The notes: generated from the sequence alone by a model not told the origin. 64,000 nucleotides of DNA from Sphingomonas sp. (GCF_026460985.1 NZ_JAPKNM010000096.1:243-64242), one strand, 5' to 3'; positions 18,414 through 60,762 are shown, numbered from the stretch's first letter. Program-made: numbers and translations.

Positions 18414-19060
18414 GGCGTGGCGCCGCAGTCGCGGCGGCCGCCGGGCTGCTGCTCGGTCTCGGCGCGTGCAAGGGTGGCGAGGAGGCCGGCAACAATGCCG
18501 CCGACGACCTGGTCATCACCACCGGCCCGGGCAATGCCGCGGGCGGTGCGGAGGTGGTGGCGGTCGGGCCCGACACCAGCGTGCTGGGCGCCGCGGCCAC
18601 GCCGATGAACGAGCGCGAGGCGGTGCTCGGCCTGCTCAACAAGCGCAACGGCCAGGCGCGCGAGTTCAAGCTCCGGCCCGGCCAGGCTGCGCGGATCGGC
18701 GACGTCATCGTCCGGCTGCGCGCCTGCGACAAGACCGCACCCTGGGAGGCCGACCAGCTCACCGGCGCCTTCGTCCAGGTCGATGTCGAGCAGCTCGACA
18801 AGAGCTGGCGCCGGGTCTTCTCGGGCTGGCTCTACAAGGAACGGCCGGCGCTCAACGTCGTCCAGCACCCGATCTACGACGTCTGGCCCAAGAGCTGCGC
18901 GATGACCTTCCGCGACAGCGGCCCCGATACCGTGCCCGCACCCACCGCCGGCGGCTCGGGCAACGCGTCGAGCGCGAAGAAGTCGCCGTCGACCGAGGGC
19001 GCGCCCGAAGAGAGCCCCGCCGCCGAATCGCCGAGCGCGGCCCCCAGCAACGCGACATAA
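18410..19060 (+). CDS. DUF2155-domain protein with low-complexity tail
   Basis: ATG 18410 overlaps the upstream stop (ATGA). Lipoprotein-like signal LLLGLGAC. Core region AVLGLLNKRNGQAREFKLRPGQ...VRLRACDKTAPWE...GWLYKE. Confidence 0.7.
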   Translation: MRRGAAVAAAAGLLLGLGACKGGEEAGNNAADDLVITTGPGNAAGGAEVVAVGPDTSVLGAAATPMNEREAVLGLLNKRNGQAREFKLRPGQAARIGDVIVRLRACDKTAPWEADQLTGAFVQVDVEQLDKSWRRVFSGWLYKERPALNVVQHPIYDVWPKSCAMTFRDSGPDTVPAPTAGGSGNASSAKKSPSTEGAPEESPAAESPSAAPSNAT

Positions 19061-22963: not shown

Positions 22964-23052
22964 CCGTTCGTGCTGAGCTTGTCGAAGCACCGTCCTTCTT
23001 TCTCTACCGAGGCAAGAGAAGAACGGCCCTTCGACAAGCTCAGGGCGAACGG
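22964..23052. repeat. palindromic REP/MITE-like element, family D
   Basis: Arms CCGTTCGTGCTGAGCTTGTCGAAG (22964..22987) and CTTCGACAAGCTCAGGGCGAACGG (23029..23052) match at 22/24 nt as an inverted repeat. The element sits between convergent genes. Its translation gives the FDKLRANG-type pseudo-peptide. Confidence 0.75.
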
Positions 23053-30943: not shown

Positions 30944-32643
30944 TCGTCGTCGTCGCCCCGCCGGCCCGGCAGGGTCGTACGGGCGGTGCCCGTCAGGCGC
31001 TCGTCGCCATCGCCCAGCTGCGGCTTATGGTGCTGTCGCTGCTGTTCGGCTTCGGCATGCTGGTCGTGGTCGGCAAGCTCGCCTTGCTCGCGCTCTGGGC
31101 CGAGCCCGCCACCGCGCGCGACATCGCCGCATCCCTGATCCCGCCGCGCGGCGACATCGTCGACCGCAACGGCGCGCCGCTCGCGCGCAGCATCGAGGCC
31201 TGGTCGATCGCGGTGCACCCCAACCAGGTGATCGGCGACAAGACCGCGCTCGCCGAGCGGCTGGCCGAGCTGATCCCCGACAAGAGCGCCGGCGATTATT
31301 ACGCCCTGCTGAGTTCGGGCAGCAGCTTCGCCTATCTCAAGCGCCGGGCGATGCCCGAGCTGGTGACCGCGGTGAACGCGCTCGGCGAGCCGGGCATGGA
31401 GTTCCAGCGCGAGCCTGACCGGCTCTATCCGCAATCCAACATGGCCGCGCACGTCCTCGGCTTTCTCGACGCCCAGGGGCGCGGGGTCTCCGGGATGGAG
31501 AAGGTGCTCGAGAAGCATCTGAGCGATCCGGCCAAGCGCGGCGCTCCGGTGGCGCTGTCGATCGACGCGCGCGTCCAGGCTGCGCTCGAGAACGAGCTGG
31601 GTCGCGCGATGGCCGACCTGCAGGCGCGCGGCGCGGCGGGAGTGATCCTCGACGTGCGCACCGGCGAAGTGCTCGCGATGACTTCGCTGCCCAGCTTCAA
31701 TCCCAATGCGCTGCCGGGCGCGGCGCCGCCCAACAACGTCACCCAGAGCGTCTACGAGCTCGGCTCCACCTTCAAGCCGCTCGCGGTCGCCGCGGCGATC
31801 GATTCGGGCGCGATCACGTCGATGACGCGACGCTTCGACGCGACCAAGCCGCTGCACATCGGGCGCTTCTCGATCAACGACGATCCGGGCGACGAGCAGT
31901 TCCGCTGGCTCAACATCCCCGAGACGCTCGTCTTTTCGTCCAACATCGCCACCGCGCGGATCGCCGACGAACTGGGCGCGGCGCGGATGCAGGACCTGTT
32001 CCGCAGGCTGGGCTTCGACCGGCGGCCCGATATCGAGCTGGGCGGCGCGCGTCCGCTCTGGCCGAACTTCTGGGGCCGGCTGACGGTGATGACCACGGCT
32101 TATGGCCACGGCATCGCGGTGACGCCGCTGCATCTCGCCAATGCCTATGCGGTGATGGTCAATGGCGGCATCTTGCGGCCGACCACCTTGCTCAAGGTCG
32201 ATCCGAACAACGTTCCTGCCGGGCAGCGCGCGCTGAAGGAATCGACCAGCGCGCGGATGCGCCAGCTGCTCCGGCTGATCGTGACCAAGGGCACCGGCCG
32301 CAAGGCCGACGCGCCGGGCTTCCGCGTCGCCGGCAAGACGGGCACTGCCGAGGCGGCGTCGGTGGGTGGATACGACAAGCATCGCAACGTCTCGACCTTC
32401 GCGGCGGCTTTCCCAATCGACGCGCCACGCTATGTGGTGGTCGCCATGCTCGACTCGCCCAAGGCCAATGCCAACACGCCGCGCACGACCGCGGGCTGGA
32501 CTGCCGCGCCCGTCGTAGGACGCGTGGTTACCCGCACCGGCGCATTGCTGGGGGTGACCCCCGACAACAACCGCGACATCGACGAGAGCGACCTGCTCCC
32601 GCTGATCTGGGAAGGGCCGGAAGCGCAGAAGGCGGCCCGGTGA
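30940..32643 (+). CDS. ftsI: peptidoglycan D,D-transpeptidase FtsI (PBP3)
   Basis: N-terminal TM helix. STFK (ELGSTFKP), SSN (FSSN) and KTGT (AGKTGTA) motifs. Putative TTG start overlaps the ftsL stop, and the start is uncertain. Confidence 0.85.
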   Translation: MIVVVAPPARQGRTGGARQALVAIAQLRLMVLSLLFGFGMLVVVGKLALLALWAEPATARDIAASLIPPRGDIVDRNGAPLARSIEAWSIAVHPNQVIGDKTALAERLAELIPDKSAGDYYALLSSGSSFAYLKRRAMPELVTAVNALGEPGMEFQREPDRLYPQSNMAAHVLGFLDAQGRGVSGMEKVLEKHLSDPAKRGAPVALSIDARVQAALENELGRAMADLQARGAAGVILDVRTGEVLAMTSLPSFNPNALPGAAPPNNVTQSVYELGSTFKPLAVAAAIDSGAITSMTRRFDATKPLHIGRFSINDDPGDEQFRWLNIPETLVFSSNIATARIADELGAARMQDLFRRLGFDRRPDIELGGARPLWPNFWGRLTVMTTAYGHGIAVTPLHLANAYAVMVNGGILRPTTLLKVDPNNVPAGQRALKESTSARMRQLLRLIVTKGTGRKADAPGFRVAGKTGTAEAASVGGYDKHRNVSTFAAAFPIDAPRYVVVAMLDSPKANANTPRTTAGWTAAPVVGRVVTRTGALLGVTPDNNRDIDESDLLPLIWEGPEAQKAAR

Positions 32644-34055
32644 GGCTGGGCGTACTGACCGGCGGCGACGAGACCGCTGCGATCACCGGATTCGCGATCG
32701 ATCACCGCAAGGTTGCGCCGGGAACGGTGTTCGGCGCCTTCGAGGGCGCGCGGGTCAATGGCGAGGACTTCATCCCGGCGGCGGTGAAGGCCGGCGCGGT
32801 GGCGATCGTCGCGCGGCCCGAGGCGGTGGTCGAGGGGGCGGTGCACATCGCGGACATCAACCCGCGCGAGCGCTTCGCCCGGCTGGCGGCGCAGTTCTTC
32901 GCGCCCTTCCCCGAGACCGCGGTCGCGGTGACGGGCACCAACGGCAAGACCTCCACCGTCGAGATGACGCGCCAATTGTGGCGGATGGCGGGGCAGCATG
33001 CGGCGTCGATCGGGACGCTGGGGGTGACCACGTCCGACGATACCGTCTCGACCGGGCTGACCACGCCCGATGTGGTGACCTTCCTCGCCAATGTCGCGGG
33101 GCTCGCGCGCGAGGGCGTCAGCCATGTGGCGTTCGAGGCCTCGAGCCACGGCCTGTCGCAATATCGCACCGAGGGGCTGCCGGTGCGCGCGGCGGCGTTC
33201 ACCAATCTGAGCCGCGACCATCTCGACTATCACGGCGACATGGCGGCCTATTTCCACGCCAAGCTCCGCCTCTTCGCCGACGTGCTCGACATGGACGGCG
33301 CCGCGGTGGTCTGGGCCGACGATCCGCATGCGATGCGGGTGGAGGAACTCGCGCGGATGCGCGGCAACAAGCTGATCACGGTGGGCGAGCATGGCGAGAC
33401 GCTGAGGCTCGTCGGGCGCGACCCGACCTTGCTGGGGCAGGGGCTGACGATCGAGGCCGAGGGCAGGACGCACAAGGTGATGCTGCCGCTGATCGGCGCG
33501 TACCAGGCGGCCAATGCGCTGACCGCGGCGGGGCTGGTGATCGCGACGGGCGGCGATGTGGGGACCACGCTTGCCAATCTGGCGCGGCTGCAGCCGGTGC
33601 GCGGGCGGCTCGAGCGCGCGGTGATCACGCGCAGCGGCGCGCCGGTCTATGTCGATTATGCGCATACCCCCGACGCGCTCGAGGCGGCGATCGCGGCATT
33701 GAAGCCGCATACCAGCGGGCGGCTGATCCTCGTCTTCGGCGCGGGCGGGGATCGCGATACCGGCAAGCGCGAGCCGATGGGGCAGGCCGCGGCGGCGGGC
33801 GCCGACGTGGTGATCGTCACCGACGACAACCCGCGTACCGAGGATCCGGCGGCGATCCGCGCTGAGGTGCTGAAAGGCGCTCCGCAAGCGACCGAGATCG
33901 GCGGGCGGCGCGAGGCGATCGCGGCGGCGGTCGCCATGGCCGGAGCCGAGGATATCGTGCTGATAGCAGGCAAGGGGCACGAGCAGGGCCAGATCGTCGG
34001 CGATAGCGTGCTTCCTTTCGACGATGTGAGCGTTGCCCGGGAATGCGCGGCGTGA
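32640..34055 (+). CDS. murE: UDP-MurNAc-L-Ala-D-Glu--2,6-diaminopimelate ligase
   Basis: VTGTNGKTST P-loop. Mur ligase middle and C-terminal domains. DNPR motif (VTDDNPRTEDP). Confidence 0.9.
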   Translation: MRLGVLTGGDETAAITGFAIDHRKVAPGTVFGAFEGARVNGEDFIPAAVKAGAVAIVARPEAVVEGAVHIADINPRERFARLAAQFFAPFPETAVAVTGTNGKTSTVEMTRQLWRMAGQHAASIGTLGVTTSDDTVSTGLTTPDVVTFLANVAGLAREGVSHVAFEASSHGLSQYRTEGLPVRAAAFTNLSRDHLDYHGDMAAYFHAKLRLFADVLDMDGAAVVWADDPHAMRVEELARMRGNKLITVGEHGETLRLVGRDPTLLGQGLTIEAEGRTHKVMLPLIGAYQAANALTAAGLVIATGGDVGTTLANLARLQPVRGRLERAVITRSGAPVYVDYAHTPDALEAAIAALKPHTSGRLILVFGAGGDRDTGKREPMGQAAAAGADVVIVTDDNPRTEDPAAIRAEVLKGAPQATEIGGRREAIAAAVAMAGAEDIVLIAGKGHEQGQIVGDSVLPFDDVSVARECAA

Positions 34056-34072
34056 GGGATCTTCTTACTTCA

Positions 34073-34244
34073 AGCCCCTCCCCTTCAGGGGAGGATCAAT
34101 CGGGTCGAAATGCCCCCCGGGCATTTCTGAAGCAGGCCGGGGGCCTGCTTCACCCGATTGATGGGGTGGGGCCTGTCCGTCTCACCGAGACCTTTCGCCT
34201 GCCGCACTGCCCCACCCCAACCCCTCCCCTGAAGGGGAGGGGCT
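34073..34244. repeat. family-A palindromic element carrying a nested 68-nt family-C palindrome (34095..34162)
   Basis: Ends AGCCCCTCCCCTTCAGGGGAGG... and ...CCCCTCCCCTGAAGGGGAGGGGCT. The nested unit is ATCAATCGGGT...ACCCGATTGAT with two perfect hairpins. The first 102 nt are identical to the copy at 42000. Confidence 0.85.
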
Positions 34245-34245
34245 T

Positions 34246-35624
<1,379 letters not shown>

Positions 35625-35625
<1 letters not shown>

Positions 35626-36695
35626 TGCTCTACTGGATCGCGGAACAGCTGGGCTTCCCCGGCGTCCTCAATCTCTTCCGCTATCTCTCGTTCCGCACCG
35701 GCGCGGCGGTCGCCACCGCCTTGCTGCTCGGGCTTATCATCGGGCCCAGGTTCATCGGCTGGCTGCGCCTCCGCCAGGGCAAGGGGCAGCCGATCCGCAG
35801 CGACGGGCCGCAGAGCCACCTCGCCAAGCGCGGCACGCCGACGATGGGCGGGCTGATGATCCTCACCAGCCTCATGATCTCGCTGTTCCTGTGGATGAAC
35901 CTCGCCAACCCGCTGGTCTGGGCGTGCATGTTCGTCACCTTCGGCTTCGGCGCGATCGGCTTCCTCGACGACTATGACAAGGTGCGCAAGGCGAGCACGG
36001 CGGGCGTATCGGGCAGGGTGCGGCTGCTCGGCGAGTTCGTGATCGCGGGCATCGCCAGCTGGGTGATCATCGGGCAGACGGGCACGCAGCTCTACGTGCC
36101 CTTCTTCGCCTGGATCCACCCCGATCTCGGCTGGTTCTACATCCCCTTCGCGGCCTTCACGATCGTCGCGTTCGGCAATGCGGTGAACCTCACCGACGGG
36201 CTCGACGGGCTCGCGACGATGCCGGTGGTGATCGCCAGCATGGCGTTCATGCTGATCGCCTACATCGCGGGCAACAAGGTGTTCGCGACCTATCTGGGCA
36301 TCCCGCACGTGCCGGGCGCGGGCGACCTGGCGATCTTCTGCGGCGCGATCGTCGGCGCGGGGCTCGCCTTCCTGTGGTTCAACGCGCCCCCGGCGGCGGT
36401 GTTCATGGGCGATACCGGCAGCCTGGCGCTCGGCGGCGCGCTCGGCGCGATCGCGGTGTCGTCGCAGCACGAGCTGGTGCTCGGCATCATCGGCGGGCTG
36501 TTCGTCGTCGAGGCGCTGAGCGTGATCATCCAGGTGTTCTTCTTCAAGCGCACCGGCAAGCGCGTCTTCAAGATGGCGCCGATCCACCATCATTTCGAAC
36601 AGCTCGGCTGGTCGGAGCCGACGGTGGTGATCCGCTTCTGGATCATCGCATTCGTGCTGGCGCTGGCGGGGCTCTCGACGCTGAAGCTGCGGTGA
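35625..36695 (+). CDS. mraY: phospho-MurNAc-pentapeptide translocase
   Basis: Ten-TM profile. [24 protein letters not shown] motifs. Confidence 0.9.
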
Positions 36696-38077
36696 TCACG
36701 TGTCCCGCCTGGCGCGGCAAACGCTATGCGGTGCTCGGACTTGCGCGGTCGGGGCTGACGACGGTCGATGCGCTGTTAGCGTCGGGCGCGGGCGTTGTGG
36801 CTTGGGATGCGAAGGAGGAAGCGCGGGACGCTCTTCTAGCCCCTCCCCTTCAGGGGAGGGGTTGGGGTGGGGCAGTGCCGCAGGCCGACCGCCCGTTGAC
36901 AGGCCCCACCCCCAACCCCTCCCCTGAAGGGGAGGGGCTTAAGATTGCCGATCCGCTGGAGATCGATCTCGCCGGTTTCGCGGGCGTGGTCGTCTCCCCC
37001 GGGGTTCCCCTCAACAAGCACCCGATCGCCGCCAAGGCGCGCGACGCGGGCGTGCCGGTCATCGGCGATATCGAGCTGTTCGCCCAGGCCCGGGCCGAAC
37101 TTCCGCCGCACAAGGTCGTCGGGATTACCGGGACCAACGGCAAGTCGACCACCACCGCGCTGATCGATCATATCGCCCGCACCGCTGGGCTGCCGAGCCT
37201 CGCGGGCGGCAATATCGGGCTGCCGATCCTCGGGCGCGATCCGCTCCCCGAGGGCGGCGTCTATGTGCTCGAGCTGTCGAGCTACCAGATCGACCTGAGC
37301 TTCAGCCTCGACTGCGACGTAGCGGTGCTGCTCAACATCACGCCTGACCATCTCGACCGCTATGACGGGTTCGAAGGCTATGCCGCGTCCAAGGCGCGGC
37401 TGTTCGCGATGCAGTCCAAGGGGCATGCCGCGGTGATCGGCATTGGCGATGCGCCCTCGGCGAACATCGCGCGGCAGGTGGCGCTGTCGGGCCGCAGCGA
37501 GGACCTGACCAAGATCGCGCCGGGCGTGTGCATGGACCAGTCGCGCTGGCCGACGCTGCAGGGGCCGCACAACGCGCAGAACGCACTCGCCGCGATCGCG
37601 GCCTGCGAGGCGTTGGGCATCGACAAGGAAGCGATCGACCGCGGGCTAGAAACCTTCCCCGGCCTGCCGCACCGGATGGAGCGCGTCGCGACGCGGAACG
37701 GGGTGCTGTTCGTCAACGACAGCAAGGCGACCAATGCCGATTCCACCACGCCGGCGCTCTCGGCCTATCCGAAGGTCCACTGGATCCTCGGCGGGCTCGC
37801 CAAGACCGACAGCCTCGAGGCGTGCCGGCCGGGCTTCGGCCATGTCGTCAAGGCGTACACGATCGGCGATGCGGGCGAGCTGTTCGCGTCGCTCCTCGAA
37901 GGCGAGATGCCGGTCGAGCGTTCGGGTACCCTCGAGGCTGCGGTGCGGAGCGCCGCGGCGCAGGCGCAGCCGGGCGAGACCGTCCTGCTCTCGCCGGCTT
38001 GCGCCTCGTTCGACCAGTTCAAGGATTATGAGGCACGCGGCCAGGCGTTCCGCGACGCAGTGAGCGCGCTCGGATGA
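36692..38077 (+). CDS. murD: UDP-MurNAc-L-Ala--D-Glu ligase, carrying a 34-aa repeat-derived insertion
   Basis: GTG overlaps the mraY stop. [10 protein letters not shown] Rossmann motif, [11 protein letters not shown]-loop, NDSKATN. The 102-nt element lies in frame at 36838..36939. Confidence 0.85.
36838..36939. repeat. family-A palindromic element (short form) inside murD
   Basis: Perfect 24-nt terminal inverted repeats, AGCCCCTCCCCTTCAGGGGAGGGG and CCCCTCCCCTGAAGGGGAGGGGCT. 102 nt in total. Confidence 0.85.
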
Positions 38078-39303: not shown

Positions 39304-40451
39304 CGAATTCGCGCAGCTATGTCCTGGCAGCGGGCGGGACCGGAGGGCATATGGTGCCCGCCGCCGCCCTCGCGGCCGAGCTGGCGAAGAGGGGGCACAA
39401 GGTCGCGCTGGTGAGCGACGATCGCGGCGTGCGCTTCCCGGGCCTGTTCGACGGAATCGAGACGCATGTGCTGCCCGCAGGCCGGCTGGGCGGCGGGCCG
39501 CTCGGCTATCTGCGCGCGGCGAGCCGTATCATGGCGGGACGATCGATGGCGCTGCGGCTCTACAAGGAACTGCGTCCCTCGGCGGTGATCGGCTTCGGCG
39601 GCTATCCGGCGCTGCCCTCGATCCTCGCGGCGTTCCGTGCCGGCGTGCCGACGGTGATCCACGAGCAGAATGCGGTGCTGGGCCGGGTCAACCGCTTCGT
39701 CGCGGGCCGGGTCAGCGCGATCGCGACCTCCTATGACGCGGTCGAGCGGATGAAGCCGCGCTGGGCGCGCAAGACGCACCTGATCGGCAATCCGGTGCGC
39801 GAGGCGGTGCTCGCGCTGCGCGAACGACCTTACCCCATCCTCGACGAGGACGGGATCTTCCGCGTGCTCGTCACCGGCGGCAGCCAGGGTGCGACGGTGC
39901 TGAGCAAAGTGGTGCCCGACGGGTTGGCGTTGCTCCCCGTCCATTTCCGCCGCCGGCTGCAGGTGACGCACCAGGCGCGGATCGAGGATATCGACGCGGT
40001 GCGCGCGAAGTATCAGGCGCACGGCATCCCGGCCGACGTCTCGACCTATATCACCGACATGCCCGAGGCGCTGGCCTGGGCGCATATCGTCATCGCGCGC
40101 GCGGGCGCCTCGACCATCGCCGAGCTGACCGCGGCGGGGCGCCCGGCGATCCTCGTGCCGCTGCCGAGCGCTACCGACGACCACCAGACCGCCAATGCGC
40201 GCGAGATCACCAATGCCGGCGGCGCGCGGACCATCGCGCAGCGCGCGTTCACCGCGACCGAGCTCGCCAAGCAGATCCAGAAGCTCGGGCTCGACACGCA
40301 GGGGCTCGAAAATGCGGCGGCCCGTGCCAGGAGCGTCGGGCGTCCGCATGCGGCGAGCGACCTCGCCGATCTCGTCGAATCGATTCACGCCCCGACGGCG
40401 CCGATCAAGGTGCGCCGCGCGGCCATCCAGGGAAGGCTCGCTCACGCATGA
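39300..40451 (+). CDS. murG: UDP-GlcNAc--lipid I GlcNAc transferase
   Basis: [27 protein letters not shown] motifs. ATG overlaps the ftsW stop. Confidence 0.9.
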
Positions 40452-41866
40452 AGGGTGTCGCAACCGATATCGGCACGATCCATTTCGTCGGGATCGGCGG
40501 TATCGGCATGTCGGGTATCGCCGAGGTGATGCACAATCTCGGCTACAAGGTGCAGGGCTCGGACGTCGCGGAGGGCTATGTCGTGCAGGGCCTGCGCGAC
40601 CGCGGCATCCCGATCGAGATCGGCCACAAGGCCGGGAATATCGGCGACGCGGCGGTGGTCGTGGTCTCGACCGCGATCGTGCGCACCAATCCCGAGGTCG
40701 AGGCGGCATACCAGCGCCGCGTGCCGGTGGTGCGCCGCGCCGAGATGCTCGCCGAGCTGATGCGGCTGAAGTCCACCGTTGCGGTGGCGGGGACGCACGG
40801 CAAGACCACGACGACCTCGATGATCGCGGCCTTGCTCGACGCGGGCGGGGTGGATCCGACGGTGATCAACGGCGGGATCATCAACCAGTACGGCTCGAAC
40901 GCCCGATTGGGCGACAGCGACTGGATGGTGGTCGAGGCCGACGAGAGCGACGGCAGTTTCCTGCGCCTCGACGGCACGATCGCGGTAGTGACCAACATCG
41001 ATCCCGAGCATCTCGACCATTACGGCTCGTTCGACCGCGCCAAGGACGCCTATGTCGAGTTCGTCGAGAACGTGCCCTTCTATGGCGCAGCTTTGCTTTG
41101 CCTCGACCATCCCGAAGTGCAGGCAATCATCCCGCGCGTCCGCGATCGCCGGATCATCACCTATGGTTTCGCCGCCAGCGCCGATGTGCGTGGGGTGAAC
41201 GTCACGCCGCATTCGGGGGGGAACCGTTTCGAGGCGATCATCCGCAATCGCGACGGCACGGTCCGCTCGATCGAGAATATCGAACTGCCGATGCCCGGCC
41301 GGCACAATGTCCAGAACGCGCTCGCCGCGATCGGCGTGGCGCTCGAGCTCGGCATCCCCGACGTGACGATCCAGAAGGGCTTTGCGCGCTTCGGCGGGGT
41401 CAAAAGGCGCTTCACCAAGGTGGGCGAGACGCAGGGCGTGACGGTGATCGACGATTACGGACACCACCCGGTTGAGATCCGCGCGGTGCTCGCCGCAGCG
41501 CGCGAGAGCGCCGAGGGCAGGGTGATCGCGGTGGTCCAGCCGCACCGCTATTCGCGCCTCGGCAATCTGATGGACGACTTCGCCCAGGCCTTCAACGACG
41601 CCGACATGGTGCTGGTGACGCCGGTCTATGCCGCCGGTGAGGAGCCGCGCGAGGGCGTCGACTCCGAGGCTCTGGTCGACGGGATCCGCCGGCGCGGGCA
41701 CCGCTCGGCCGCCGCAGTCGCCGATGCCGATGCGCTGGCGCGCAGCCTCGCCGAAGTGGTGGTGCCGGGCGACATGGTCGTCTGCCTCGGCGCGGGCGAC
41801 ATCACGAAGTGGGCCGCGGGCCTCGCGCCGGCGATCGAGCAGGTCCGGCAGGGAGCGGCGGCATGA
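40448..41866 (+). CDS. murC: UDP-MurNAc--L-alanine ligase
   Basis: [39 protein letters not shown]. Confidence 0.9.
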
Positions 41867-41982
41867 GCGACTGGTTCTCCACCGCGGTCGAGATGCAGCG
41901 CGAGATCCTCCGCGCGCAGAAGGCGGCCGAGGCGAACCTCGCGGCGTGGAAGCAATGGACGAAGCTGTGGGGATGGAAGTGA
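41863..41982 (+). CDS. 39-aa Trp-rich small ORF translationally coupled to murC
   Basis: ATG overlaps the murC stop (ATGA). GGGAG lies 7 nt upstream. [39 protein letters not shown]. 37 of 39 codons end in G/C, like the host genes. Too short to appear in the supplied ORF track. Confidence 0.5.
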
Positions 41983-41999
41983 GCGTCTGCGTCTCTCTT

Positions 42000-42171
42000 A
42001 GCCCCTCCCCTTCAGGGGAGGATCAATCGGGTCGAAATGCCCCCCGGGCATTTCTGAAGCAGGCCGGGGGCCTGCTTCACCCGATTGATGGGGTGGGGCC
42101 TCGCCGTCTCACCGAGACCGATGGTCCGTGGACAGGCCCCACCCCAACCCCTCCCCTGAAGGGGAGGGGCT
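42000..42171. repeat. family-A palindromic element with nested family-C palindrome (42022..42089)
   Basis: Second 172-nt copy. Identical to 34073..34174 over its first 102 nt, and the last 35 nt are also the same. Confidence 0.85.
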
Positions 42172-42175
42172 TTCG

Positions 42176-43078
42176 ATGAGCCAGGTCTGCTACGCGCTTC
42201 CTCCTGTCCGCGGAAAACTGACTCACGGCGCGCCGCTCGCGCCTTTGGTGTGGTTCAAGAGCGGCGGCGCGGCGGAATGGCTGTTCGAGCCGGCGGATGT
42301 CGAGGATCTCAGCGCTTTCCTCTTCGCGCTCGATCCCGCCGTACCGGTGATGGGATTGGGGCTGGGCTCGAACATGATCGTCCGCGACGGCGGCGTGCCG
42401 GGCGTCGTGGTGCGGCTGGGCAAGCCTTTCGCGACGGTCGAGCAACTCGATGCGACCACGCTCAAATGCGGCGGCGGCGCGTCGGGCATCCTCGTTTCGT
42501 CCAAGGCGCGCGACGCGGGGATCGGCGGCGTCGAGTTCCTGCGTTCGATCCCGGGTACCGTCGGCGGGTTCGTGCGGATGAACGGCGGCGCCTATGGCCG
42601 CGAGACCAGCGACGTGCTGGTCGAGTGCGAGGTCGTGCTGCGCTCCGGCGAGCGGAAGACCCTCTCGCTGGCGGAGCTCGGCTACACCTATCGGCACAGC
42701 GAGCTTCCCGGCGGCGCGATCGTGGTGAGCGCGACTTTCCGTGGGCATGCCGGCGATCCGGCCGCCATCCAGACCGAGATGGACCGCATAGCCGCCGCGC
42801 GCGAGGAATCGCAGCCGCTGCGCTCCAAGACCGGGGGATCGACCTTCAAGAATCCGGAAGGGCACAAGGCCTGGGCGCTGATCGATGCGGCGGGTTGCCG
42901 CGGATTGCGGCGGGGCGATGCGCAGGTCAGCGAAAAACACTGCAATTTCCTGCTCAATCTGGGCAATGCTTCCTCGGCCGACATCGAGGCGCTGGGCGAG
43001 GACGTCCGCGCGAAGGTGAAGGCGCAGTCTGGCGTCGAGCTGGAGTGGGAAATCCAGCGTATCGGGGTGAACAAGTGA
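42176..43078 (+). CDS. murB: UDP-N-acetylenolpyruvoylglucosamine reductase
   Basis: LPPVRGKL...WFKSGGAAEWLFEP...GLGSNMIVRDGG...GSTFKNP. The ORF-track start 42128 lies inside the repeat, so the gene is trimmed to ATG 42176. Confidence 0.9.
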   Translation: MSQVCYALPPVRGKLTHGAPLAPLVWFKSGGAAEWLFEPADVEDLSAFLFALDPAVPVMGLGLGSNMIVRDGGVPGVVVRLGKPFATVEQLDATTLKCGGGASGILVSSKARDAGIGGVEFLRSIPGTVGGFVRMNGGAYGRETSDVLVECEVVLRSGERKTLSLAELGYTYRHSELPGGAIVVSATFRGHAGDPAAIQTEMDRIAAAREESQPLRSKTGGSTFKNPEGHKAWALIDAAGCRGLRRGDAQVSEKHCNFLLNLGNASSADIEALGEDVRAKVKAQSGVELEWEIQRIGVNK

Positions 43079-43090
43079 GTGTTGAGCTGA

Positions 43091-43215
43091 AATCCTCCCC
43101 CGCCAGGGGGAGGTGGCACGCGCAGCGTGACGGAGGGGGAGGACTCCCAACGATCGTTTGTGCTTCCGCCCCCTCCGTCGCCTTCGGCGCCACCTCCCCC
43201 TTGCGGGGGAGGATT
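43091..43215. repeat. family-B palindromic element
   Basis: 27-nt terminal inverted repeats, AATCCTCCCCCGCCAGGGGGAGGTGGC and GCCACCTCCCCCTTGCGGGGGAGGATT (26/27 match). Internal 11-bp pair GACGGAGGGGG/CCCCCTCCGTC. Confidence 0.85.
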
Positions 43216-43217
43216 GC

Positions 43218-44141
43218 ATGAGCGGCAAGTTGCACATCGCCGTCCTCATGGGCGGGTGGTCCGCCGAGCGCGAGGTTTCGCTGATGTCGGGGAACGGCGT
43301 CGCGGATGCTCTCGAGAGCCTGGGCCACCGCGTCAGTCGCGTCGACATGACGCGCGACGTCGCGATCAAGCTCGCCGAGCTCAAGCCCGATCTCGTGTTC
43401 AACGCGCTCCACGGCACCCCCGGCGAGGACGGGACGGTGCAGGGCACGCTCGACCTGATGGGGCTGAAATACACGCATTCGGGCCTCGTCACGTCGGTGA
43501 TCGCGATCGACAAGCAGCTCACCAAGCAGGCGCTGGTGCCGCACGGCATTCCGATGCCCGGCGGGCGGATGGTGCGCAGCGAGGAACTGTACGAGCGCGA
43601 CCCGCTGCCGCGGCCCTATGTGCTCAAGCCGGTCAACGAAGGCTCGTCGGTGGGCGTGGCGATCGTCACCGCGGAGGGGAATTACGGCGATCCGATCGCG
43701 TGCGATGCCAAGGGGCCGTGGCAGGAGTTCGACGACCTGCTCGCCGAGCCCTTCATCCGCGGGCGCGAGCTGACCACCGCGGTGCTCGGCGACCAGGCCC
43801 TGGGCGTGACCGAATTGAAGCCCAAGAGCGGCTTCTACGACTATGACGCCAAGTACACCGACGGGCTGACCGAGCATGTTTTCCCGGCCGACATTCCCGA
43901 GGAAGTCGCCGATGCGTGCAAGCGCATCGCGCTCGACGCGCATCGGCTGCTCGGCTGCAAGGGTTGCTCGCGCTCGGACTTCCGCTGGGACGACAGCCAG
44001 GGCGCCGACGGGCTGTTCCTGCTCGAGGTCAACACCCAGCCGGGGATGACGCCGCTCAGCCTCGTGCCCGAGCAAGCGCGCCATCTCGGCATCTCCTATG
44101 CTGAGCTGGTCCAGCGCATCGTCGACGAGGCGCTCGCTTGA
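43218..44141 (+). CDS. ddl: D-alanine--D-alanine ligase
   Basis: MSGKLHIAVLMGGWSAEREVSL...FNALHGTPGEDGTVQG...EVNTQPGMT. Confidence 0.9.
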   Translation: MSGKLHIAVLMGGWSAEREVSLMSGNGVADALESLGHRVSRVDMTRDVAIKLAELKPDLVFNALHGTPGEDGTVQGTLDLMGLKYTHSGLVTSVIAIDKQLTKQALVPHGIPMPGGRMVRSEELYERDPLPRPYVLKPVNEGSSVGVAIVTAEGNYGDPIACDAKGPWQEFDDLLAEPFIRGRELTTAVLGDQALGVTELKPKSGFYDYDAKYTDGLTEHVFPADIPEEVADACKRIALDAHRLLGCKGCSRSDFRWDDSQGADGLFLLEVNTQPGMTPLSLVPEQARHLGISYAELVQRIVDEALA

Positions 44142-59457: not shown

Positions 59458-59587
59458 ATCCTCTCCCGGAGGGAGAGGGGGACCAGCGAAGCTGGTGGAG
59501 AGGTAGTCTCCTCGAGCGAGATGCGTTGATGCGTGGCGAATACCCCTCCACCGCTTCGCGGTCCCCCTCCCCCTCCGGGGGAGGATT
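59457..59587. repeat. family-B-related palindromic element (divergent copy)
   Basis: Ends AATCCTCTCCCGGAGGGAGAGGGGGACCAGCGAAGCTGGTGGAG and CTCCACCGCTTCGCGGTCCCCCTCCCCCTCCGGGGGAGGATT. Starts at the last base of the SPOR gene stop. Confidence 0.75.
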
Positions 59588-59602
59588 GCGTAAAGGGCAA
59601 GC

Positions 59603-60610: not shown

Positions 60611-60739
60611 AATCCTCCCCCGCCAGGGGGAGGTGGCGCGCTTTGCGCGACGGAGGGGGAGGAAGCACGCCGGCAAGTGAGTCGCCATCCTCCCCCTCCG
60701 TCAGCCTTCGGCTGCCACCTCCCCCTTGCGGGGGAGGAT
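60611..60739. repeat. family-B palindromic element
   Basis: Same termini and internal GACGGAGGGGG/CCCCCTCCGTC pair as 43091..43215. Starts directly after the nagZ stop. Confidence 0.85.
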
Positions 60740-60762
60740 AATAGGCTGCTTAACTCGCCGCA

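Follow-up and report, generated by a model that had tools for sequence, protein, structure and literature searches.

A palindromic repeat between murE and murF of Sphingomonas may be crossed by a translated relay ORF

Organization of the murE-murF Junction

The window analyzed here, that is, the whole stretch of 64,000 nucleotides from a Sphingomonas sp., carries the dcw (cell-division/cell-wall) cluster of this genus, the genes of which were called with NCBIfam (table 1). A spacer of 190 nt (34056-34245) separates murE from murF. We place the start of murF at ATG 34246 because the alignment with the family profile runs from residue 2 of MurF, which corresponds to profile position 3; the N-terminus MSSPLWTS is also as in homologues. 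This supports the start codon presumed in an earlier note, written from the sequence alone. The sequence likewise confirms that the sole Shine-Dalgarno (SD)-like motif of murF is the GGAGG at 34236-34240, which lies 5 nt upstream of the ATG in the 3' arm of a terminal hairpin.

In agreement with the same note, almost all of the spacer consists of a palindromic repeat, hereafter called family A, which accounts for about 172 of the 190 nt. As its boundary can be placed only to within 1-2 nt, the previous statement that the element ends exactly 1 nt before the murF ATG holds as regards adjacency to the start codon but has to be widened to a distance of 0-2 nt. Both ends of the element form hairpins, the left one having its 3' arm truncated by a separate palindromic unit, hereafter called C, as seen both in the sequence and in the alignment of copies. 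For the RNA of the spacer, folding predicts a single long hairpin with branches (-151.7 kcal/mol, z = -9.2 vs shuffles). The pyrimidine-rich flank that leads from the murE stop to the palindrome is missing in relatives with an empty junction (see below), and similar flanks are found beside other copies of family A. Scanning positions 33800-34500 for sigma-70 promoters and intrinsic terminators returned neither, which gives no ground for assigning the spacer a role as internal promoter or terminator.

Table 1. Coordinates of genes, repeats and bridge ORFs in the window and, where an L number is given, in the stretches used for comparison
Feature	Position	Strand	Details
murE	32640-34055	+	stop TGA 34053-34055; NCBIfam NF001124, E = 2e-179
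murF	34246-35625	+	start ATG 34246; NCBIfam NF010693 / TIGR01143, alignment from residue 2
mraY	35625-36695		NCBIfam
murD	36692-38077		NCBIfam
murC	40448-41866		NCBIfam
murB	42176-43078		NCBIfam
ddl	43218-44141		NCBIfam
Bridge (relay) ORF, murE-murF	34043-34249	+	68 codons; ORF listing, only stop-free frame of the spacer
Pyrimidine-rich left flank, murE stop to palindrome	34056-34072	+	alignment with L120, L121
Family-A palindromic repeat, long form with C	34073-34245	.	motif counts, alignments; left end 34073/4, right end 34244/5
Left terminal hairpin CCCCTCCCC-TTCA-GGGGAGG	34075-34094	+	arms CCCCTCCCC 34075-34083, GGGGAGG 34088-34094
C unit	34095-34162	.	68 nt, ATCAATCGGGT...ACCCGATTGAT; closing inverted repeat 34095-34105 / 34152-34162
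C hairpin 1, GAAATGCCC-ccc-GGGCATTTC	34107-34127		perfect, CCC loop
C hairpin 2, GAAGCAGGCC-ggg-GGCCTGCTTC	34129-34151		perfect, GGG loop
Inner stem with variable central loop	34163-34218	.	GGGGTGGGGC 34163-34172 with GCCCCACCCC 34209-34218; loop 34173-34208
Right terminal hairpin CCCCTCCCC-TGAA-GGGGAGGGG	34221-34242	+	9-bp stem, local fold -23.4 kcal/mol
Short family-A copy without C	36838-36939	+	34 codons, in frame inside murD
Second bridge ORF	41979-42179	+	through long A+C copy 42000-42172
Third bridge ORF	43075-43221	+	through family-B palindrome 43088-43218
Family-B palindrome copies, window	43088-43218; 59554-59601; 60611-60740		outer hairpins CCTCCCCC-nnnn-GGGGGAGG, inner arms GACGGAGGGGGAGGA
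Third palindrome family (CCGTTCG..GCTGAGCTTGTCGAAG... / ...CTTCGACAAGCTCAG..CGAACGG)	window 22964-23052; L126 17770-17905; L134, L162 murE-murF spacers		
Further C-like modules	L011 1139-1185; L014 1317-1362; L060 2098-2143; L064 91-133; L072 184-225, 6733-6778; L084 726-771, 878-921		
Long DUF559-enclosing family-A copies	L038 1959-2378; L074 5957-6366; L075 6222-6648; L106 6701-7133; L024 223-657; L062 6465-6938		

Distribution of Family A in Sphingomonadales

The terminus motif of family A occurs six times in the window, against an expectation of 0, and in at least 119 stretches from species-representative genomes, nearly all of Sphingomonadales (including Sphingomonas, Sphingobium, Sphingopyxis, Novosphingobium, Allosphingosinicella and other genera). 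Paired copies mostly measure 91-111 nt and have perfect terminal inverted repeats of at least 22 nt; in some other copies, additional hairpin modules separate the outer hairpin from the inner G-tract. In 6 of 73 paired copies the length reaches 410-474 nt, and the central loop holds an ORF of about 100 or more codons that matches Pfam DUF559 (E = 5e-29), with a further weak match to REase_MTES_1575. These ORFs look like Vsr-like PD-(D/E)XK proteins with an EVDGxxHD motif, and the one in L062 terminates at the ATGA where the next gene begins. To our knowledge, DUF559 is not a known transposase; no IS with family-A ends was seen. Just outside the palindrome, the flanks of 57 paired copies are biased toward T-(T/A)-A, beyond which purines predominate (e.g., TTAAGAAGA); neither exact element ends nor a consistent target-site duplication could be fixed from these copies, and the bias may reflect a target preference, a duplication or a part of the element itself. 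Rfam has no family corresponding to family A, and the miRNA-hairpin look-alikes that it returned on the palindromes, none of them over the murE-murF copy, were below threshold and were treated as spurious.

The short copy of family A within murD adds 34 codons ending in PSPEGEGL, in a variable loop that follows the N-terminal part of MurD. At the same site of MurD, L124 has an element-derived insert of other length and L120 has none.

The Nested C Unit

The 68 nt of the C unit, with its two perfect hairpins in the left arm of the element, are as the earlier note had described them, and the start motif of C appears twice in the window against 0.01 expected. C replaces four nucleotides (GGTT) of the short form of family A, giving a net gain of 64 nt and no clean insertion, and it is free of stops in only one frame. 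The second long copy of family A (42000-42172), which is 92% identical overall to that at murE-murF, has an identical C at the same position; in these two copies the left arm plus C, about 100 nt, are the same and the central loop differs. Either two site-specific insertions or gene conversion may account for this identity.

Scans with the exact pattern of C gave 0 matches among the species representatives of GTDB and likewise 0 among JGI metagenomes. A search by structure, combining a closing inverted repeat with a CCC-loop hairpin and a GGG-loop hairpin, was conducted in about 1.5 Mb of Sphingomonadales DNA and found eight further C-like modules, the stems of which differ in sequence and keep their pairing, that is, they covary. 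Each of the eight adjoins the GGAG/CTCC of the outer hairpin of its host palindrome. All ten modules, counting those of the window, are nested in palindromes of two families, namely family A and family-B-like hosts (the latter in L072 and L084), and none stands free in the DNA searched. This T-shaped architecture recalls the ITRs of parvoviruses and the 'rabbit ears' of Streptomyces telomeres.

Orthologous copies of family A without C are present at the murE-murF junction of L122, the MurF of which is 95% identical to that of the window, and of L126, as well as upstream of murB in L120. From these we deduce that C is separable and was acquired in the lineage of the window. The element-within-element structure proposed in the earlier note is thus retained insofar as C can be separated from its host, but not in the sense of an independent repeat, since C is never free-standing; occurrence outside family A, on which the proposal had been made to depend, was found for C-like modules in family-B-like hosts but not for the exact C sequence. 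On this comparative evidence C is a host-dependent nested module, later acquired in the lineage of the window, and not an independent repeat.

Empty Junctions in Relatives

The earlier note had suggested comparing the murE-murF junction among relatives, and this comparison proved informative. In L120, L121 and L123, with MurF 92-95% identical to that of the window as in the other relatives compared for filled and empty sites, and also in L127, the stop codon of murE and the start codon of murF overlap. The junction of these empty sites reads ...GCGGCGTGA(NN)CTCTGG or GCGGCATGA..., and the upstream sequence, with ATGCGCGGCGTGA in it, matches that of the window, the agreement being almost complete over the 76 nt that lead up to and include the murE stop; L122 and L126 have instead the short copy of family A. 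The starts of ancestral murF that overlap the murE stop, ATG 34043 and GTG 34052, are intact in the window, where the four codons ATGCGCGGCGTG (ATG-CGC-GGC-GTG) are identical with the murF start region of the relatives with empty sites. Overlapping junctions also make up 46 of the 79 murE-murF junctions that we obtained from metagenomes. Judging from these alignments, the murE-murF spacer of the window is a derived repeat insertion, formed by a family-A element of about 100 nt that was later joined by C. We had entertained the idea that the insertion created the present murF ATG together with three extra codons (MSSP) and dropped it as unproven, since the empty site of L127, ATGA CGATGCCC CTGTGG, encodes MTMPLW, an N-terminus of the same length class without any insert.

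Bridge ORFs across Filled Junctions

The only stop-free frame of the murE-murF spacer belongs to an ORF, hereafter the bridge ORF, which starts at the ancestral ATG 34043 or at GTG 34052, the latter overlapping the murE stop (GTGA 34052-34055), and which traverses the entire family-A element, C included, before stopping at TGA 34247-34249 in overlap with the murF ATG (ATGA 34246-34249). The frame in which C is open is precisely the one that the bridge ORF uses. The same arrangement recurs twice downstream. A second bridge ORF begins with GTG 41979 on the stop of a small ORF (41863-41982) and ends with TGA 42177-42179 on the murB ATG 42176, whereas the third, across a family-B palindrome, begins with GTG 43075 on the murB stop and ends with TGA 43219-43221 on the ddl ATG 43218. 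Positions 41863-44141 form an unbroken chain of 4-nt overlaps, from murC via ATGA to the small ORF, via GTGA to the bridge ORF through A+C, via ATGA to murB, via GTGA to the bridge ORF through family B and via ATGA to ddl. The small ORF after murC encodes 39 residues in the window and 64 in relatives. The overlap of stop and start codons (ATGA / TGATG, or a distance of few nucleotides) that typifies translationally coupled pairs is present at all three junctions of the window. Outside the dcw cluster, the family-B copy at 60611-60740 lies between co-directional genes in a spacer of 152 nt that has no bridge ORF, with TAATAG right after the element.

Translation of the corresponding junctions in relatives revealed further bridge ORFs in L122, Sphingomonas prati L046, L125 and L126, the last with two junctions. 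The insert of L125 belongs to a different repeat family with CCTCCCGCTTGCGGGAG hairpins, and one junction of L126 is filled by a third family. In all, eight filled dcw junctions (three in the window and five in relatives), with inserts of four repeat families, have the same geometry of double overlaps. Their spacers measure 91, 115, 124, 124, 139, 139, 190 and 193 nt, all of which are 1 mod 3, and six of the eight have no stop-free frame other than that of the bridge. The phase is maintained even where orthologues differ by indels: the murE-murF spacers of the window and L122 differ in length by 66 nt (22 codons) although the net gain from C is 64 nt, and those of L122 and L126 are both 124 nt despite different indels.

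The third palindrome family was also seen filling dcw junctions in other relatives, again with bridge ORFs. A different way to accommodate an insert is observed at the murB-ddl junction of L126 (TAGATATG), where a GGGGAGAGGG-type repeat at 18820-18880 has apparently become part of both genes, extending over the 3' end of murB and the beginning of ddl.

The encoded peptides behave differently from the frame. The left arm of family A is read in different frames by orthologous bridge ORFs, which yields SPSPSGE in one and KPLPFRGG in the other, so that the bridge peptide is not conserved. By the sequence comparison, what is conserved in bridge ORFs is openness and phase, and not the peptide. Separately, the murE-murF bridges of L141, L144 and L164 (43-50 codons) have a common peptide motif, (R/K)P(K/R)L(S/G)L.YG, and may represent a genuine small gene in some lineages of Sphingomonadales and not a translated repeat. 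These three metagenomic bridges are an argument for viewing bridge ORFs in general as genes of a functional micro-protein, an explanation that we find highly improbable given that repeat-derived bridges exhibit no peptide conservation, that orthologous copies pass through the left arm in different frames and that the inserts come from unrelated repeat families.

Statistical Evaluation

GC-rich DNA is poor in stop codons, so that the nulls are appreciable (0.15-0.47 per junction). The frequency of bridge ORFs was evaluated in two ways. Across the genomes with family A, the distances between the end of the element and the next gene start are bimodal, with values of 0-5 and 13-21 nt. Of 12 element ends that are no more than 6 nt away from an ATG or GTG gene start, 10 have an ORF running through the element and terminating on the start codon. 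The corresponding figure is 6 of 23 for ends at a distance of at least 9 nt, with genes that possess an SD of their own outside the hairpin (Fisher P = 0.003).

The second evaluation was prospective, as it used 80 further metagenomic murF loci (58-78% identity) gathered after the hypothesis had been formulated, with junctions delimited by tblastn anchors. Among the 79 junctions, 33 have a distance of at least 30 nt from the murE stop to the conserved LW codon; these comprise 21 bridges, 10 in-frame N-terminal extensions and 2 that the script left unassigned, with 0 scored as a prematurely closed frame. Clear inserts, defined as 75 nt or more, are present at 21 murE-murF junctions, 18 of which show a bridge with exact stop/start overlap (null 0.148 from shuffling plus phase randomization, P about 1e-12). 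With the looser criterion of either a bridge or an in-frame insert the figure becomes 20 of 21 (null 0.34, P about 7e-9). The inserts in this set are of many unrelated kinds and range from 79 to 307 nt.

These figures bear on the notion that bridge ORFs have no function at all and are a by-product of target duplication of ATGA combined with the stop-poor nature of G+C-rich palindromes, murF being translated by other means. The three inserts of the window are indeed flanked by GTGAG on the left and ATGAG on the right, and family A is stop-free in two of three frames; duplication of an ATGA target would yield both overlaps for free, leaving only phase and openness to be selected for. Yet phase and openness are kept across unrelated inserts of the whole size range above, indels compensate each other between orthologues, C is open in just the frame that is used and the combined P is about 1e-9 to 1e-12. 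We therefore give very little credence to the by-product explanation.

Initiation of murF and a Proposed Translational Relay

The GGAGG of murF is fully paired in the 9-bp stem of the right terminal hairpin, with a local fold of about -21 to -23 kcal/mol, and in the global fold of the spacer it pairs with the left terminus instead. Every fold hence pairs the SD, either in the 9-bp G+C stem or in an alternative long-range stem. The orthologous copy at the murF junction of L124 (positions 1-30) has lost the 5' arm of the hairpin (CCCCACCCCAGAAGGGAAGGGGCGTATG); its SD-like purine tract is largely unpaired, and its fold (-15 kcal/mol) is no better than that of shuffled sequences. Stems as stable as that of the window reportedly cut de novo initiation by orders of magnitude, according to de Smit and van Duin. 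Considering this knowledge together with the predicted stability of the hairpin, de novo initiation at the murF GGAGG should be very poor, nearly abolished.

This prediction weighs against the view that the end of the repeat works as an independent ribosome-binding site, with de novo 30S initiation at GGAGG/ATG, the hairpin tuning murF and the bridge ORF being irrelevant. The ideal 5-nt spacing of GGAGG, the location of element ends 0-5 nt ahead of gene starts in numerous genomes and the freed SD of L124 are all in its favor. Nevertheless, we judge it unlikely, because the SD is paired in all folds and would initiate poorly although murF is essential, and because the 1 mod 3 spacers, the single open frame and the exact double overlaps across four repeat families would have no explanation. 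The earlier note had seen here an exapted ribosome-binding site tuned by sequestration of its SD; the location of the SD in the hairpin at the repeat end stands, but a free-standing site seems insufficient in view of the stable hairpin and of the upstream start and ORF that had been overlooked. The GGAGG of murF is probably better read as an aid to reinitiation within a translational relay.

Coupling generally requires overlaps or very short distances between genes and operates by RNA unfolding and/or reinitiation, with help from the SD (PMC6728339, PMC10666635, PMC12548453). A gap of 190 nt that is untranslated and strongly folded should thus break it. In the relay that we propose, the repeat would have been inserted where the stop of murE and the start of murF ancestrally overlapped, in such a way that the ancestral murF initiation site was kept upstream. 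Ribosomes coupled to the termination of murE could then start the bridge ORF of 68 codons and translate the element in its only open frame, unwinding the hairpins on their way, including the 9-bp stem that sequesters GGAGG. Termination at the UGA overlapping the murF AUG (AUGA) would be followed by reinitiation on murF, helped by the GGAGG 5 nt upstream. The family-A element would be tolerated at this position because translational coupling from murE to murF is relayed across it.

It could be argued that the spacer is translated mainly to protect the transcript, namely from Rho-dependent polarity or from RNase acting on a C-rich gap. The open frame across inserts holds generally, polarity arising from untranslated RNA is well established (PMC12548453) and the spacer has no terminator-like site. 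However, such protection would not need the exact overlaps of 4 or 1 nt at both ends that are found in 18 of 21 cases, and the heavily structured RNA of the spacer would be a poor loading site for Rho. Protection of the transcript, which would be complementary to the relay, has in our opinion a small chance of being the main reason for translation. From the anatomy of the junction, its derived state, the conservation of frame and phase and the statistical excess of bridges, we infer translation of the bridge ORF and dependence of murF on this translation; we regard it as reasonably likely that translation of the spacer melts the hairpin and that the bridge ORF relays coupling from murE to murF.

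Relationship with Known Systems

Among coupled gene pairs with ATGA or TGATG overlaps, the junction described here is comparable in that the bridge ORF overlaps its neighbors by 4 nt on either side and in that an SD-like motif precedes the restart codon. Genes VII/IX of phage f1 and MS2 provide examples of an inhibitory hairpin over a downstream ribosome-binding site that the upstream ribosome is able to open (PMC12548453, PMC6728339). The partner in our case is different, consisting of a repeat insertion that would serve as a passive relay ORF between essential genes that formerly overlapped. We found no relay ORF of this kind, made by insertion of a repeat, in the review on coupling or in that on MITEs.

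Rickettsia palindromic elements (RPEs) are translatable palindromes tolerated within ORFs, which is exactly the situation of the murD copy (36838-36939). The insert at the murF junction is similar to RPEs in lying in the former 5' end of murF, but is out of frame with stop and restart; the likeness is one of arrangement.

Further resemblance is found with REP sequences, REPIN-RAYT systems and BIMEs, which are short, G+C-rich palindromes of high copy number whose doublets form long hairpins. Other mobile DNA, of the IS1397 type, nests specifically in REP palindromes, as C does in family A. A minority of family-A copies, as in REPIN-RAYT systems, enclose a small gene of a nuclease family between inverted arms. 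The enclosed gene is DUF559 and not a Y1 RAYT, no Y1 transposase family being matched by the ORFs enclosed in family-A copies, and while REPs are typically located downstream of genes, family A at murE-murF sits between a stop and a start. The REP head is defined by the tetranucleotide GTAG or CGTC (PMC3733652), which is absent from family A, the termini of which read AGCCCCTCCCC....

Bacterial MITEs such as Correia/NEMIS, ERIC and BOX share with family A a size of about 100-170 bp, terminal inverted repeats, co-transcription within operons and RNA forming long hairpins. As expected for a MITE, family A is small, non-coding and bounded by terminal inverted repeats, its copies are dispersed (at least 119 stretches), and its presence is polymorphic, as the murE-murF sites of relatives are either filled or empty. 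Bacterial MITEs alter the expression of neighboring genes or create ORFs (PMC10969869, PMC3049150); their known effects concern promoters, RNase III sites, mRNA stability and adventitious ORFs, but not a relay ORF conserved in phase. On these characters we classify family A as a member of the palindromic-repeat/MITE kind that resembles REPINs in behavior and lacks the defining features of REP and RAYT. Considering its full-length copies with DUF559 and its T-shaped nested modules, family A may constitute a system of the REPIN/RAYT type in which a Vsr-like endonuclease is the driving enzyme.

In the literature we found no description of family A, of the association of DUF559 with repeats or of relay ORFs derived from repeats. 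As far as we have found, a phase-conserved relay ORF across repeats at junctions of formerly overlapping essential genes would be an undescribed variant of translational coupling.

Implications for the dcw Operon of Sphingomonadales

Beyond the murE-murF junction, we put forward a general proposal to which we would assign an even chance of being right, namely that inserts at the overlap junctions of the dcw cluster in Sphingomonadales survive only as translated relay ORFs with double overlaps, for which the palindromes would be pre-adapted by their scarcity of stops and by a GGAGG near the restart codon. If this is true, palindromic repeats would be able to colonize gene junctions from which mobile DNA is normally barred, and the filled junctions would constitute a natural replicated experiment indicating that unbroken coupling, or continuous translation, is obligatory in the dcw operon. 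Discussions of repeats within operons usually treat them as promoters, terminators or stabilizers of mRNA, while the sequence evidence reported here points to a rule by which DNA inserted at an overlapping junction is retained only if ribosomes can translate through it in phase, the hand-over of ribosomes from one essential gene to the next being thereby preserved.

If confirmed, the relay would explain how mobile palindromes can reside between the stop and start codons of essential genes. Its comparative signature, which combines a spacer of 1 mod 3, a single open frame and double overlaps, could then reveal obligatory coupling in any genome, and simple reporter tests could separate the models of coupling based on unfolding, reinitiation and anti-polarity. 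It would also carry a warning for annotation, because such "intergenic" repeats would be translated and the adjacent start codons would be restart codons.
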